NCBI GenBank assembly: GCA_038208905.1
Contig: JBBQYG010000101.1
Coordinates: forward strand, 1 to 14,126
Length of the DNA stretch: 14,126 nt
Reading direction: 5' to 3'
Origin: Candidatus Sumerlaeia bacterium
GTDB lineage: Bacteria > Sumerlaeota > Sumerlaeia > SLMS01
Shown here: in pieces, positions 2,188 to 14,126 of the stretch
How the letters are laid out: each line of letters begins with the position of its first letter
Numbering within the stretch: position 1 is the stretch's first letter
Notes under the pieces: generated by a model
The model's input: only the letters and a program-made list of their open reading frames with translations
Databases searched by the model: none
What the model was told of the DNA's origin: nothing
Translations under genes and position numbers: made by a program

Positions 2188-4008
2188 TTGGACTCGCTGA
2201 TGGCATCTACTCCAAGCGGCGCGCAGCCGCATCCGCCGCTTGGTAGCTTCTGCGGCGCGGGGGCGCTGATGTGGTTTGCGCTCTCATTTGGCCTGTTTGC
2301 GGTCTCCCCCGTGTACCAGCTCACCGATTCGCGCTTCGTTTTCCTGCTCAGCGAATCGCTCATGTATCGCGGCGCATTCGAGCTGACCCCCATGATCGAG
2401 TCCAGCCAGCGGGTGACGCCGGAGCTGGGCCACTTCATCGCGCGCGTGCCGTACCAGCTCGAAAAACTGCCCGACGGACGTATTTTCCACTACTGGCCAC
2501 CCGGCGCGGCGATCCTTTCGATTCCCTATGTCTGGGTCGCGAACCAACTCGGCTACCGAACCTTCGATCTGGAGTCGGGCTATGATCCCGACATGGAGCG
2601 CGTGATGCAACTCCCCCTCGCTTGGGGGCTATCCGCGCTCTTTGTCGCCTGCGTTTGGATTTCGGCGACCTGGGCAGGGATGCGGCGCGGGCGGTGGTGG
2701 ATTTGCGCGGCGGTGACGGCGGCGACTCCCGTATGGAGCATCGCCTCGCGGAGCCTGTGGTCCAACACGTGGGTTCTGCTGCTGCTGGGCACGGCGATCT
2801 TGCTGCTGCAACTTCTTGAGGCAGGCCGCGGGCGCGGAATTCTGATCGGGGCGGCGCTGGCGACGGTGCTCTCCTGGGGCTACTTCATCCGCCCCACGAC
2901 CGCCGTGCCCATCGTCTGCGTCGGCGTGTTCCTCGCGATCCGCAACTGGAGGGCGCTGGCCGGGTATGCGGTGGTCGGGCTGCTGTGGCTCGGGCTCTTC
3001 CTGTGGTACTCCCACGCGAACTTCGGACAGGCATTTCCCTCCTACTCCAAGGGGAGTCGCCTCAGTCTCGCCATCTTTCCCATCGGCCTGGCGGGCAACA
3101 TGATCAGCCCCTCGCGCGGGATGCTTGTCTATACGCCGGGCATCCTGGCCGCGCTGTACCTCGCGGCGCGGCGGTGGAAGGTTCTGCGGCACGAGCCGCT
3201 GGCGATTCTGGCGCTCGCCGCCGCAAGCCTCCAACTGGCCGCGATCTCGTGTTTCCCGGTTTGGTGGGCGGGGCACAGCTATGGCTCGCGCCTGACGTTG
3301 GAGCTCCTCCCGTGGTTCGTGCTGCTGGCGATTCTTGCGGTGAGGGCGGGCGGGGCAATGCTCTCGCGAGGCGAAGTGATCGCATGCATCCTCGTCACCG
3401 CCCTCGGCGTCATCCCCAACGGACTCGGTGCGCTGCACACGCGGTGCTGGCTGTGGAACTACTTCCCCGAGGATGTGGAAGCGAGGCCCACGCGCAGCTT
3501 CGACTGGCGCTATCCGCAATTCCTCTCTCCGTTGTTAAGGCCGCCGCCGCCAGACACCTTTCCTCCGCTGCCATCCGGTGGCCGAATCTCCCCCACCGAC
3601 GAGGGCCAGCGCCCCTTGCTGTGGGAGGGTTGGACGCAGTGGCCCACGCCACCAATCCGCTGGACGGAAGGGCCCCGCGCCAGTGTGCGGTTTGGCATCG
3701 ACCAGGTCCCGCCAGCCGCAACCCTCTCTGTGCGCGCGGGGGCCTTCGTGCATCCACCCGCGCTCGCGAAACAGAGCATCCGCGTGCTGCTCAACGGGGT
3801 CGTCATCGGCTCCGGCGAATTCACCCAGCGCGGCCTTGTGGACCTGGAGTTCCCAATCCCCGATGGCGTCCTCGCAAAGGATAACTTCCTCCTCATCGAG
3901 ACACCCGACGCCGCCTCTCCCAAGTCCGTCGGCCTCAACGACGACGCACGAAAACTGGGCATTGAGGTCGAGTGGATTACGATCACCATGGGAACGCCGA
4001 TCTCCTGA
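2188..4008 (+). CDS. Polytopic membrane protein, probable GT-C-fold (PMT/ArnT-like) glycosyltransferase with a soluble C-terminal beta-rich domain
   Basis: Many hydrophobic segments, an acidic residue after TM1 (LTDSRF), and motifs HYWPPG, SRSLWSNT, IRPT, SPSRGMLVYTP and WWAGHSYGSRL. The C-terminal ~140 aa (WEGW...RWTEG...LLNG...SP...DDARKLGI) is soluble and beta-rich. Start uncertain (TTG 2188 or ATG 2200). Confidence 0.6.
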   Translation: MDSLMASTPSGAQPHPPLGSFCGAGALMWFALSFGLFAVSPVYQLTDSRFVFLLSESLMYRGAFELTPMIESSQRVTPELGHFIARVPYQLEKLPDGRIFHYWPPGAAILSIPYVWVANQLGYRTFDLESGYDPDMERVMQLPLAWGLSALFVACVWISATWAGMRRGRWWICAAVTAATPVWSIASRSLWSNTWVLLLLGTAILLLQLLEAGRGRGILIGAALATVLSWGYFIRPTTAVPIVCVGVFLAIRNWRALAGYAVVGLLWLGLFLWYSHANFGQAFPSYSKGSRLSLAIFPIGLAGNMISPSRGMLVYTPGILAALYLAARRWKVLRHEPLAILALAAASLQLAAISCFPVWWAGHSYGSRLTLELLPWFVLLAILAVRAGGAMLSRGEVIACILVTALGVIPNGLGALHTRCWLWNYFPEDVEARPTRSFDWRYPQFLSPLLRPPPPDTFPPLPSGGRISPTDEGQRPLLWEGWTQWPTPPIRWTEGPRASVRFGIDQVPPAATLSVRAGAFVHPPALAKQSIRVLLNGVVIGSGEFTQRGLVDLEFPIPDGVLAKDNFLLIETPDAASPKSVGLNDDARKLGIEVEWITITMGTPIS

Positions 4009-6429: not shown

Positions 6430-9000
6430 CTACTGGTACAGATCCCATCCCTCTGCGTCGCTGGTGTTAATGCCGTCGAGGACGGCGAGATAGATGCGTT
6501 CCGATCCGAATGCAGGACCAGCGCCAACGGTGGGGCCCGTGCCGCGCGGCGCGGCGGCGTTCCAACTGGAGACGATGGTGCGGTCGCCGGTGGTGGAGTC
6601 CACGCGCAGGAGCGCTCCGCGACTTGAATCGAGGACGAAGTATTGGCCGCTGACGGAGCCGACGGCGACGGCCGTGGCGAACGCGAGGGGGAGGCCCCGG
6701 CCGATGATCGAAGAACCGTCGTACCCGGAGAGAACGGTTGCCGTGCCGGTGGTATCGTCGATCGTATAGACGGAGGCTCCTTGAGTGCCTGCGAGATAGT
6801 CTCCGCCCGGAAGCAGTGCCATGTCGGAAAGGCCAAGCGGCGCGGTACCCGGAAAGAGCGAGCGGTCCCCTGTAACGGTATCCACCTGATAGATGTTGGG
6901 CACTCCCAAGCCCGCGATCACGATTACCTTTCCGCTGGGGCCGCGCGCGATGTTCTCAAGCGATCCGGAGAAGCTGGGACCGGAACCTATCGGCGGCCCG
7001 CCGCTGCTCTGCGAGAGGATGCTCCGGGCGCCGGTGGCAATGTTCGTGGTCGAAATCGCGCCGGTGTGGCTGCACCCGTAGATGTTGCCTGTGCCGTCCA
7101 TGACCATACCATTCAGGCCTCCAATGGAAGGCCCGCTGCCCACGCTGTTGAATGGATCGGTCACCGCTGTGCGCCGCAGCGTGTGGCGGTTGATCCGAAC
7201 GACCAGATGATACGTTGCCTGGCCGACCAGGACGTTGGAGCCATCCTCCACCAGGATTCCTCCGCTCGCATAGATATTCGGATCTGAGAACGGAGCATCG
7301 TTCGATCCATTGATCACGCGGCGATTGCCGTTGGACATGTTGATTTCATACACGCTCCCGTTCCGGCTGATATACGCATAGCCATCGATACCCTCGCTCA
7401 GCGCCGTGAACCCCGTGCCCGTCAGCGCGACGGAGATCACCGGGGTGTCGGGATCGTTGGTTGTGACCTGCATCGTGGCGCTGCCAAGACCATCAGTCGC
7501 GGGGCTGAAGCGAACTACGATATCTCCCGTGCTGCTGGGGCCGACGACTGTCGGCGTCGCGCCTTCCACGGCAAACCTGCCGGCCTCGGGCCCGGAGAAG
7601 GCAACACCGGTGATCGTGAGGCCGGAGAATCCACCATTGGTGATGGTGATCGACCGCTGGCTGGAGCCACCGATCGCGGCGATGCCCAAGTCGCGCGAAG
7701 CTGCCGCGCTGCCGTCGGGCTGCATGCTGTATAGATAGACAGTTCCGGTGGAATTGCTTGCGAAAGAACGCACCGCGAGATCCTCGTTGCCGTCTGCTCC
7801 GAGGTCCGGAAGCAGGGTCGGCGGGCCAAATAGGCCGAAGGAGGAAAATGGCTCCGCGATACGGCCGATGTACTCCCGCGTGGCGCCGGAGTAGAACCGT
7901 GCCGAATCATCGAACCCTGTGATGTAACCGATGGCGATGTCGCGCACGCCATCATTGTCGAGGTCTGGGGTCTCGCTGACGCCGTTGCCAAAGATTAGTC
8001 CCACATTGGGGCTCGGGCTTCCGAGCGAGGAGAGCAGCGTCCGCGATTCCGCCGAGTAGATCAGCACGGTTCCGTCCACTAGAATGCCGGGTAGGCTGGC
8101 ATTCGAGAAAAGCGCATAGTCGTCCTTTCCCCCCCCGTCGATATCGCCAAGGCGAGCGACCCCCGACAGCCTGGCATCGGTCTCGGGCGATGCGGATTCG
8201 AAGCTGTGAATCAGCGAGCCGTCGGCGCTGGACATCAGATAGACGCGGCCTGCCTTGGCAAACCCCCCCACCGTCTCGTCGGGGGCCGTTATCAGCAAGT
8301 CATCGAGCGTGTCTCCATCGGCGTCGGGGACACTGAGGACGATCTGGCCAAACTGTCCGTTCGCCTCGGCATTCGGGGAGGAGAGCGTGCGGATGGCGCT
8401 GCTGAGTGTGGCGCCATTCATGACGTAAACTCGCCCGCGCCCGCCGTTCTCTCCGGGCGCGGAGACCGCGACATCCGCCACGGTATCGGAATTCAGGTCG
8501 GGCAGGGAGACGAGGTTGTAACCGTAGGAACCGTCTGACTCGGGGCTTGGGCTCCCCTCCGATTGAAAAGAGACGCCCGTTTGGGGATTGATGACATAGA
8601 TTCGACCCGCCCCGGCCAGCGTGGCGTGAGTGGTCCACGGCGCGGATGCAAGAAACTCCGGGACCGCCCCGCCGGTCATCTGACGCCACGGGATCACCGA
8701 GAGGCCGAAGAAACCGCCGGAAACACCGTCGGGGGCGTTGGCTGTGCGGATCAGAGTGCGGTCGCTGCCGCTCAGCAGGTGAACTTTCCCCCCTCCGCTC
8801 TCAAAAGGCGCACTGATGGCAAGATCGACGGCAGCGTCCGAATTGATGTCGGGAAGCGCAACGATGGTCGCGCCAAACAAGTTGCCGGTTGTTGCAAGGG
8901 GAGACGTGATGGTGGCGTACTGCGCCGACGCCGATAAGGCGCCGAGTGCGGAAATCGTGGCACAGATTGTAGCTGCAAATCGGGCATGGCGAACCATCAT
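6430..9000 (-). CDS. Secreted multidomain protein: signal peptide, FG-GAP (integrin-alpha-like) propeller, ASH/choice-of-anchor D Ig-like domain, second beta-propeller, C-terminal W-x-x-Y tail (~856 aa)
   Basis: Likely start at ATG 9000 (GGGAG RBS at 9005-9009), giving signal peptide MMVRHARFAATICATISALGALSASA|Q. Repeated FG...D-x-N/D-x-D-x-x-x-D-L-x-x-x-AP...G-R-V-Y units. ASH-like ITITNGG...LTITGV...VRFSP...TNDPDTP...LTGTG. Six D-x-x-T-G-x-R-type repeats. Confidence 0.85.
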   Translation of the reverse strand: MMVRHARFAATICATISALGALSASAQYATITSPLATTGNLFGATIVALPDINSDAAVDLAISAPFESGGGKVHLLSGSDRTLIRTANAPDGVSGGFFGLSVIPWRQMTGGAVPEFLASAPWTTHATLAGAGRIYVINPQTGVSFQSEGSPSPESDGSYGYNLVSLPDLNSDTVADVAVSAPGENGGRGRVYVMNGATLSSAIRTLSSPNAEANGQFGQIVLSVPDADGDTLDDLLITAPDETVGGFAKAGRVYLMSSADGSLIHSFESASPETDARLSGVARLGDIDGGGKDDYALFSNASLPGILVDGTVLIYSAESRTLLSSLGSPSPNVGLIFGNGVSETPDLDNDGVRDIAIGYITGFDDSARFYSGATREYIGRIAEPFSSFGLFGPPTLLPDLGADGNEDLAVRSFASNSTGTVYLYSMQPDGSAAASRDLGIAAIGGSSQRSITITNGGFSGLTITGVAFSGPEAGRFAVEGATPTVVGPSSTGDIVVRFSPATDGLGSATMQVTTNDPDTPVISVALTGTGFTALSEGIDGYAYISRNGSVYEINMSNGNRRVINGSNDAPFSDPNIYASGGILVEDGSNVLVGQATYHLVVRINRHTLRRTAVTDPFNSVGSGPSIGGLNGMVMDGTGNIYGCSHTGAISTTNIATGARSILSQSSGGPPIGSGPSFSGSLENIARGPSGKVIVIAGLGVPNIYQVDTVTGDRSLFPGTAPLGLSDMALLPGGDYLAGTQGASVYTIDDTTGTATVLSGYDGSSIIGRGLPLAFATAVAVGSVSGQYFVLDSSRGALLRVDSTTGDRTIVSSWNAAAPRGTGPTVGAGPAFGSERIYLAVLDGINTSDAEGWDLYQ

Positions 9001-9234
9001 GGAACTCCCAGAAAGAGATTTAGTAAGGCTGTTGGTCGGCATAATGACCGCAAATTCCGACCGGCGAATCAACCCATTTTTGATCCGATAAGGGGGTTAT
9101 TTTCCCCGAATGCTGCCGGCATTTTCCCTGCATGTTTTTGTGGACAGGGTGTCCCCGCCGGTGTTCGCCTCCGCGTTACCAATGGCAGCGCGCTGGCGCA
9201 CCATCCAGGACCGCAAGGGACGATACGATAACCT

Positions 9235-13757: not shown

Positions 13758-14126
13758 TCAGTCGAACCACTGCCACTCCGGCACGGACGATCCCGGGAGC
13801 GGCGCAATGTACTCCATGCGGACGGCACCGGAGTAGAAGCGATTCCCCGTCACCGCGCCGTTCCCGACAACCACGTTCTGGGTGACCGCGCCCTTCGCGG
13901 GGCTGGCCTCGAACTCAAAGTTGCCGAGAGTCTGCCATGTGTTGCCGTTCCCCGAGACGTTCTGGTTCTGCGAGGACGTGCTGGCCCCGTTGCGGTGGTT
14001 CACGGTGTAGGTGACATTGGCGATGTTGTTGGAGCTGTAGGGATAGGCCACCTGAACCGTATAGACCCCGGAGACGTCGAAGATCGGGGCGAAGGTGGCG
14101 AAGCGGTTGGCCGTGCCCGCGCTGCA
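13758..14126 (-). CDS. 3' end of a probably secreted protein with a golvesin/Xly CBD-like domain and a C-terminal W-x-x-F tail; runs off the right edge
   Basis: The frame is open to the window end: CSAGTANRFATFAPIFDVSGVYTVQVAYPYSSNNIANVTYTVNHRNGASTSSQNQ...NTWQTLGNFEF...AVRMEYIAPLPGSSVPEWQWFD*. The pattern AxFxP...GxYxV...YxVxHxxG...NQ...WxxLGxF...AVR is characteristic of this domain. Confidence 0.75.
   Translation of the reverse strand, partial: CSAGTANRFATFAPIFDVSGVYTVQVAYPYSSNNIANVTYTVNHRNGASTSSQNQNVSGNGNTWQTLGNFEFEASPAKGAVTQNVVVGNGAVTGNRFYSGAVRMEYIAPLPGSSVPEWQWFD

Follow-up and report, generated by a model that had tools for sequence, protein, structure and literature searches.

A short C-terminal tail on exported proteins of Candidatus Sumerlaeota that appears to be positionally interchangeable with dockerin

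The window analysed here is a stretch of 14,126 nucleotides that makes up the whole of contig C101 of a Candidatus Sumerlaeota genome, G000 (assembly of 4.24 Mb, 301 contigs, 64.5% G+C). Two of its genes encode proteins, here called carrier 1 and carrier 2, that end in a similar ten-residue tail (Table 1), and this tail is the subject of the analysis. Genomes, families, genera, G000 contigs, loci and proteins are labelled G, f, g, C, L and P, respectively. The product of the carrier 1 open reading frame (ORF; 6430-9072, minus strand) ends with ...DGINTSDAEGWDLYQ directly before the stop codon. This frame is open from 9072, and the database copy, P0003 (855 residues), begins 25 codons downstream with MMVRHARF. 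The initial annotation described carrier 1 as an FG-GAP protein whose last propeller blade precedes the tail. Pfam does detect FG-GAP repeats, but in the N-terminal part, and a choice-of-anchor D / HYDIN Ig-like domain is placed at residues 454-547. The C-terminal third is tentatively an NHL/YncE-type propeller (nearest Atlas clusters 0.86-0.87), an assignment to be taken as a lead only. Carrier 2 ends with ...APLPGSSVPEWQWFD before its stop codon; its full form is represented by P0015, a protein of 606 residues with a signal-peptide-like N-terminus (by eye), PF09992, Golvesin_C, a linker and the tail. Counted from the stop, both tails have Ser at -10, Ala or Val at -8, Trp at -5, Leu or Trp at -3 and Tyr or Phe at -2, and translation bears out the residues that had been claimed for the two proteins.

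The remaining window genes are of cytoplasmic type, encoding a BirA-like ligase, an acetyl-CoA hydrolase/transferase, Lon, a CobW-type GTPase and a Phd-like antitoxin. None of the other window ORFs has the tail at its C-terminus, as their listed C-termini confirm; PEW does occur in the CobW-like protein, but seven residues before the end. The six closest relatives of the window Lon (52-66% identity) all come from Candidatus Sumerlaeota or Sumerlaeia metagenome-assembled genomes, and the other 74 of the 80 relatives listed belong to other phyla (46-52% identity). Judged by these relatives, the source genome belongs to Candidatus Sumerlaeota, the phylum that had been named in the initial annotation. 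That annotation had named rpsO and pnp as markers beside lon; lon is present, and a scan of nine window ORFs revealed neither of the other two.

Table 1. Positions of the two tail-bearing genes and of their tails in the window
Feature	Position	Strand	Description
Carrier 1 gene (P0001)	6430..8997	-	Signal-peptide-like N-terminus, FG-GAP, Ig-like domain, propeller-like region, tail
Carrier 1 tail	6433..6462	-	Last ten codons, S-D-A-E-G-W-D-L-Y-Q; tail profile 16.0 bits
Carrier 1 stop codon	6430-6432	-	
Carrier 2 gene (P0002), 3' part	13758..14126	-	Interrupted by the contig end
Carrier 2 tail	13761..13790	-	S-S-V-P-E-W-Q-W-F-D; tail profile 17.7 bits

The tail is not confined to the window. Among 2975 ORFs called in G000 with our own codon-usage script, a regular expression derived from the two window sequences matched 19, against 0.27 expected from its internal frequency (about 70-fold enrichment). 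A position matrix anchored on Trp found 53 carriers at 12 bits or more, against 0.15 expected at C-termini; as background, the same score was reached 14 times in 1,100,209 internal positions. By either count the motif is common in this proteome. The number of 53 is an undercount, because two variant tails of G000 (...PPDAWLLH and ...PTGENWEVN) scored below the threshold. The set probably also includes at least one false positive, a circularly permuted ATP-grasp protein. An unbiased scan for three-residue words with gaps, taken over the final 10 residues of every ORF, pointed to the same tail: the top five words by enrichment (V..W.M, W.LY, A..W..Y, V..W..F and V.DW; 16-31 fold) are all pieces of it, and the other words of the top 25 are almost all generic Lys/Arg-rich ends. 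The consensus is P-[PT]-[ST]-[SA]-[VA]-x-[DNG]-W-x-[LM]-[YF], then the stop, usually with no or one polar residue in between. Trp is the only invariant residue; relative to it, residue classes are conserved at -3 (Val/Ala), +2 (Leu/Met) and +3 (Tyr/Phe). In the 53 G000 tails the aromatic residue is followed by no residue in 20, one in 27 and two to three in 6, and what follows it is E, N, Q, D, Y or nothing, with K twice and R once.

Sequence comparison sorts the 53 carriers into 49 families. Their Pfam domains are of extracellular type (LTD, Golvesin_C, FG-GAP, F5/8 type C, fn3, GH18, GHL10, M12B and M14 peptidases, trypsin, PAD, CotH and arylsulfotransferase); when 20 carriers were scanned singly, 12 had no Pfam family at all. 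In NCBIfam, carriers matched choice-of-anchor D, Q and Z, myxosortase- and rhombosortase-dependent M36 peptidases and MYXO-CTERM MtsC, which are families that depend on sorting signals elsewhere. A signal-peptide-like N-terminus was called in 36 of the 48 carriers with a complete 5' end and in 585 of 2703 other ORFs (odds ratio 10.9, p=1e-14), which confirms the enrichment among signal-peptide-positive proteins that the initial annotation had proposed to look for. In at least six of the 12 carriers missed by this crude rule, a signal peptide is visible by eye. Altogether, the tail is present on 53 of about 620 signal-peptide-like ORFs of G000.

The tail is retained by homologues of its carriers. 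A search of 5.8 billion proteins returned no full-length orthologue of carrier 1, giving the protein itself and 11 partial, untailed relatives, so conservation was tested on other carriers. Two orthologues of carrier 2 (58-62% identity) end in ...PLPPEPSAWWVVE (...PEPSAWWVVE) and keep this variant with Trp at -5, hydrophobic residues at both -3 and -2, and an acidic residue at the end. When 11 carriers from other genomes were compared with G000, four had a G000 carrier as their best match (26-37% identity); of the other seven, two matched G000 proteins with variant tails, one matched an untailed protein and four matched nothing. Homologues at 26-40% identity retain the tail. The largest set of relatives was obtained for a PQQ-sugar-dehydrogenase-like carrier of genome G057. 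Trp stands at -4 or -5 in 29 of the 31 listed relatives of up to 460 residues and in none of the 89 longer, distant relatives, in which other C-terminal domains are present. Across the 29 Trp-bearing relatives, information content is 4.3 bits at Trp, 3.7 at Val -3, 2.9 at the aromatic position and 2.3 at Leu/Met, compared with about 2-2.3 bits in the last strand of the domain and 1.2-1.7 bits in the linker and the variable tail positions. By these alignments, the tail is under selection, and the conservation in orthologues that had been set as a check was found. In an AlphaFold2 model of the G057 carrier (40-row alignment, mean pLDDT, predicted local distance difference test, 89.2), the last strand covers residues 431-437. 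Because the final block beyond it (441-448) has no secondary structure and a mean pLDDT of 53, the tail is predicted to be an appendage outside the fold.

A profile, A1, was built on the 22-residue tails of G000 and run on 75 Sumerlaeota genomes and on 30 genomes of other lineages. In G000 itself it gave 46 matches at E <= 10 and 40 at E <= 1. At E <= 1, three or more matches were found in 42 of the 75 Sumerlaeota genomes (counted by hand from the table), the 41 besides G000 having 3-25 matches; these counts favour G000 because the profile was trained on it. By clade, f1, the family of G000, has 3-12 matches, most of the order of G000 4-11, f15 2-25 and the remainder, G072 apart, 0-4. In family f16, G072 has 12 matches and its six family mates 0-1, which suggests gain by transfer or a misplaced genome. 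Some of the clades that look tail-free hold variants missed by A1, for example ...SPLWWVY in G069. The outside genomes were taken by way of their Lon loci and include four Hydrogenedentota and six Ignavibacteria/Bacteroidota. No true tail was found in these 30 genomes: 21 had no match, and nine had a single match, none of which was the C-terminal tail of a long frame. By comparison, the best matches in Sumerlaeota genomes other than G000 lay at the end of the open frame in 11 of 11 cases, with two or fewer residues after the aromatic in nine, and with 40 further loci the aromatic was last or second-to-last in 49 of 51 such foreign tails. Within this sample the tail is restricted to clades of Sumerlaeota (42/75 versus 0/30), and it is a real, lineage-wide C-terminal tag of Candidatus Sumerlaeota.

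In one genus the place of the tail is taken by dockerin. Genus g11 (G031 and G032) has no tails, though it lies within the tail-bearing family f3. Two unrelated carriers of G035 have homologues in G031 that end in Pfam Dockerin_1, above threshold, at residues 416-465 of 472 (L232) and 939-988 of 1000 (L239). The two g11 genomes have the highest dockerin counts in the phylum (33 and 24); G004, likewise without tails, has 23, the 13 genomes of the tail-rich family f15 have 0-1 each, and Pfam gives three in G000. In six loci of g11 a pilin-like gene stands beside a same-strand gene for a dockerin-ended protein, five of these dockerins being Pfam-confirmed. The tail and the dockerin are interchangeable in position. 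Dockerin_1 was not found on the two window carriers, nor among the 25 listed of the 43 Pfam families of the 53 carriers.

A dockerin-like repeat, DxNGDGxxDxxD, is a second recurrent C-terminal module of G000. It usually follows a Thr/Pro-rich linker, as in C45:19033-22044, C64:14914-17121 and C93:13332-15245, and Pfam Dockerin_1 detects only three of its occurrences. Four sugar-dehydrogenase-like relatives in G031/G032 (L217, L218, L220 and L221) have the C-terminus PPxEIxDH[LV]x[VIM]x, which retains both linker and Asp of the Trp tail and has His or Arg where Trp would stand. A profile of these four members, tried as a g11 dialect of the tail, found only those four, its weaker matches being internal; this end may be a decaying tail or a variant specific to one protein family. 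Cohesin was also considered as the tail receptor and set aside, its matches being weak and mostly below threshold. One signal-peptide-bearing protein of 481 residues (C80:9077-10522) has two cohesin-like segments by eye (Pfam Cohesin 22 bits, below cut-off) and lies within a same-strand gene block with a PilT-like ATPase; weak Cohesin hits of similar size occur in G031, G032, G004 and G065. From these sequence features, the C80 protein is a candidate receptor.

Sumerlaeota genomes encode many proteins that resemble type IV pilins. G000 has about 36 such paralogues (e.g., C44:7435-8100, C49:11151-11747 and C248:2363-3109), of 190-230 mature residues, whose prepilin helices are nearly identical and in which the motifs TSPIAY and YDPTNGTISxGDIxR are conserved, and each of the 75 genomes has from 11 to at least 42 copies. 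In three of these proteins, only the prepilin N-terminal domain scored above cut-off in NCBIfam; the GspG and PilA models remained below cut-off and matched only the N-terminal helix. One of them was modelled (mean pLDDT 72.7): the long helix of pilins is present, and the globular part is ill defined. Pfam T2SSG and a pilin subfamily profile, A3, were tried as partners of the tag and rejected as non-discriminating, since both were found in 75 of 75 genomes.

Tail genes are linked on the chromosome with these pilin-like genes. In G000, a pilin-like gene adjoins 6 of the 53 carriers compared with 16 of 568 other signal-peptide-like ORFs; the mean under randomisation is 1.08, and none of 2000 permutations reached six. 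The six carriers are mutually unrelated, five of them are on the same strand as the pilin-like gene with gaps of 43-142 nucleotides, and the pilin-like gene is upstream in four. The linkage recurs in other genomes. Forty foreign-tail loci were drawn from the top of the A1 match list, their neighbours being disregarded. In eight of them, from seven genomes of families f1, f4 and f15, a same-strand pilin-like gene lies directly upstream of the tail-bearing ORF (gaps of 13-220 nucleotides). The pilin family is present in 13 of the 40 loci and is the sole real recurrent neighbour family, as the next cluster (eight loci) resembles low-complexity spurious frames. No enzyme recurs near the carriers of G000 or in the 40 foreign loci. 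A complex prediction for the soluble part of the C44 pilin with the 40-residue tail segment of its neighbour scored 0.00 (mark 0.32) and counts neither way. As for secretion machinery, G000 has four secretins and 17 matches to the T2SSE ATPase family, and neither exosortase nor PorV was found in it. At C12:28991-39714, a carrier of 992 residues (Golvesin_C and fn3) is encoded on the same strand just downstream of a pilM/pilO/secretin cluster, from which it is separated by a protein of 384 residues that starts with an apparent zinc ribbon (by eye). Two G000 carriers adjoin ATPase genes.

Comparison with known C-terminal signals brings out shared and differing features. No C-terminal sorting model of NCBIfam or Pfam matches it. 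We found no description of such a tag in the full-text literature covered, which includes the Sumerlaeota genomics paper PMC8092238 without its supplements, and the tail is apparently undescribed. In the available part of bioRxiv 10.1101/2023.06.07.544157, seven attributes are listed for tripartite C-terminal sorting signals. As listed there, the tail shares four of them: C-terminal location (zero or one residue after the aromatic in 47 of 53 G000 tails and 49 of 51 foreign tails), many copies, signal peptides and unrelated carriers. It has neither a membrane helix, ending 3-5 residues after Trp, nor a terminal basic cluster. The seventh attribute given in that part of the preprint, three invariant motif residues, is doubtful for the tail, in which Trp is invariant and three further positions are conserved as classes. 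Twenty C-termini of G000 that do have a transmembrane segment and basic residues share no common motif. Like the tail, LPXTG/sortase, PEP-CTERM/exosortase, GlyGly-CTERM/rhombosortase and MYXO-CTERM/myxosortase are lineage-restricted and occur on families of the choice-of-anchor type. Those signals use a cognate intramembrane enzyme, whereas none was found for the tail of about ten residues, exosortase being absent, and the tail probably acts outside the membrane.

The type I dockerin (PF00404) has the same C-terminal position after a linker, and it shares with the tail homologous proteins, the pilin-adjacent cassette and similar enzymes and binding modules. With some 60 residues and a duplicated calcium-binding repeat, it forms a folded module, whereas the tail is predicted to be unstructured, has about ten residues and lacks such repeats. 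The C-terminal domain (CTD) of the type IX secretion system (T9SS; type A, TIGR04183) is likewise a C-terminal tag on a subset of signal-peptide-bearing exported proteins of diderms. It is a folded domain of 70-100 residues, and no T9SS CTD model was among the NCBIfam matches of the carriers. The initial annotation had held that the tail lacks the transmembrane helix and basic cluster of sortase-type signals and is far shorter than a T9SS CTD, and both statements proved correct. The beta-signal of outer-membrane proteins (OMPs) and the DegS-activating YxF are likewise short aromatic-rich motifs at a fixed distance to the free C-terminus. The beta-signal is found on beta-barrels, whereas the carriers are soluble multidomain proteins, and its aromatic residue is the last one, which is so in only 20 of 53 tails. 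In addition, the W-x-[LM]-[YF] spacing of the tail does not alternate as in C-terminal aromatic peptides. The positional constraint would fit a PDZ-type ligand, whose binding depends on the free carboxylate of a hydrophobic terminal residue, but about half of the tails add one polar residue.

We infer from its distribution that the tail may be a sorting or docking signal. The proposal of an undescribed short secretion or surface-anchoring signal is supported in that the motif is common, enriched on exported proteins, conserved and matched by no catalogued model. Beta-strand augmentation, raised in the initial annotation, is a possible mode of action. Our preferred reading, to which we give an even chance, is that the tail is a peptide-sized docking or routing tag read by a common envelope receptor. 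Since it stands in place of the dockerins of related proteins, it probably docks or routes proteins at the cell surface. A short linker rich in Pro and Thr joins the tail to many unrelated proteins exported by Sec, namely enzymes, lectin-like modules and adhesin-like proteins. In the preferred reading, the receptor would bind the unstructured tail, at or near the free C-terminus, once the carrier has been exported, and this binding, non-covalent and without cleavage of the tail, would hold or route the carrier at the cell surface. Type IV pilin-like proteins, which are abundant and whose genes often accompany those of carriers, might be connected with this receptor, and the tail would be a functional counterpart of the dockerin. 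A more specific version, in which the tail, as a mini-dockerin, would insert into a subunit of pilin type or into a protein carried on that subunit, is unlikely. In that version, exported enzymes and adhesins would be displayed on fibres made from the 11 to at least 42 pilin-like paralogues, and tail and dockerin would be interchangeable plugs of one pilus-borne enzyme-display apparatus, a so far undescribed diderm counterpart of the cellulosome.

Several results weigh against a docking tag. No receptor was found for the tail, and canonical cohesins are nearly absent from the phylum, with weak hits only. In the phylum as a whole, the number of tails shows no correlation with that of dockerins (Spearman -0.10, p=0.40); both modules are missing from 19 genomes, and they occur together in G030 and G036. 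At least 14 G000 proteins end in a single dockerin-like repeat, and none of them is beside a pilin. A third carrier family in g11 retains a degenerate tail (...PPEIPDHLSVR and relatives) and has no dockerin. Because the g11 loci were selected for apparent adjacency, six of ten is not a rate, and they establish the existence of the cassette, not its frequency. Concerning pilins, 47 of the 53 carriers have no adjacent pilin, and the pilin-like family occurs in all 75 genomes, tail-free ones included, so that it does not co-vary with the tag. Finally, gene calls and signal-peptide calls came from our own crude scripts.

The rival explanations have to account for the same observations. The tail might instead be an outer-membrane export signal that is read in the periplasm by a machine like the type II secretion system (T2SS) or the type IV pilus, which would pass the folded protein through a secretin. 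The secretins, T2SSE matches and about 36 pilin-like genes of G000 would provide this machine, and PorV and exosortase were not found; carriers are enriched beside pilin-like genes, one lies downstream of the pilM/N/O/Q-type secretin cluster and two beside ATPase genes, and many are hydrolases that need an outside location. Yet this machinery is phylum-wide and the tag is not, only 53 of the roughly 620 signal-peptide-like ORFs have the tail, and the dockerins that replace it are docking modules, not known for export. We also know of no linear signal in known T2SS substrates, and altogether an export signal seems somewhat unlikely. A processing signal, recognised and removed by a periplasmic or surface protease or transpeptidase that possibly attaches the C-terminus to an envelope polymer, as with sortase and PorU, would suit the four attributes shared with the catalogued sorting signals as far as the preprint's available part lists them, and the small residues [ST]-[SA]-[VA] before Trp. 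The strict distance to the free C-terminus would likewise suit a C-terminal processing peptidase of PDZ type. However, there is no membrane helix or basic cluster to keep the substrate at a membrane enzyme, exosortase and PorV were not found and no enzyme recurs near carriers. Interchange with the non-covalent dockerin also points against processing, which we consider decidedly unlikely.

The tail also resembles aromatic ligands such as Ar-x-Ar and YxF. Its aromatic-x-hydrophobic-aromatic pattern at the extreme C-terminus could be a periplasmic quality-control or chaperone tag read, like the C-termini of OMPs, by factors of the SurA, DegS or DegP type. That is very improbable, for the carriers are soluble multidomain proteins and not beta-barrels, half of the tails have one extra polar residue after the aromatic, and neither the dockerin interchange nor the pilin linkage would be explained. 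Lastly, the tail might have no function and be an artefact of composition or phylogeny, or simply the way in which a common fold normally ends; the matrix and the profile were trained on G000, and the carrier counts depend on our own ORF caller. Against this, the untrained regular expression was about 70-fold enriched, the carriers belong to 49 unrelated families, and the tail is absent from the 30 outside genomes. Moreover, the tail is kept at 26-40% identity, is more conserved than the linker and is predicted to lie outside the fold, which makes an artefact scarcely credible.

Apart from the tail, two other regions of the window were recorded. A Phd/YefM-like antitoxin ORF at 1415-1738 (27.6 bits, slightly below the Pfam cut-off) shares four bases with an ORF of 144 residues at 1735-2169, and together they (1415-2169) may be a toxin-antitoxin pair. 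An ORF of 606 residues at 2188-4008 with a good coding score has no Pfam family at E <= 0.001.

What is new here is the gene linkage between tails and pilins, and the dockerins on homologues and in the same pilin cassettes in a tail-free genus. Sumerlaeota are widespread, uncultured polymer degraders, and how their proteins come to lie on the outer membrane or outside it has, to our knowledge, not been described. A ten-residue tag on more than 50 proteins of G000 provides a simple sequence rule by which the surface and secreted proteome of the phylum could be predicted. The dockerin interchange and the pilin linkage make the role of the large pilin expansions testable with a synthetic peptide, and a short portable tag could serve surface display. 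If the tail does work as a docking or routing tag, it would be the first C-terminal address of this size in bacteria to function without a membrane helix.

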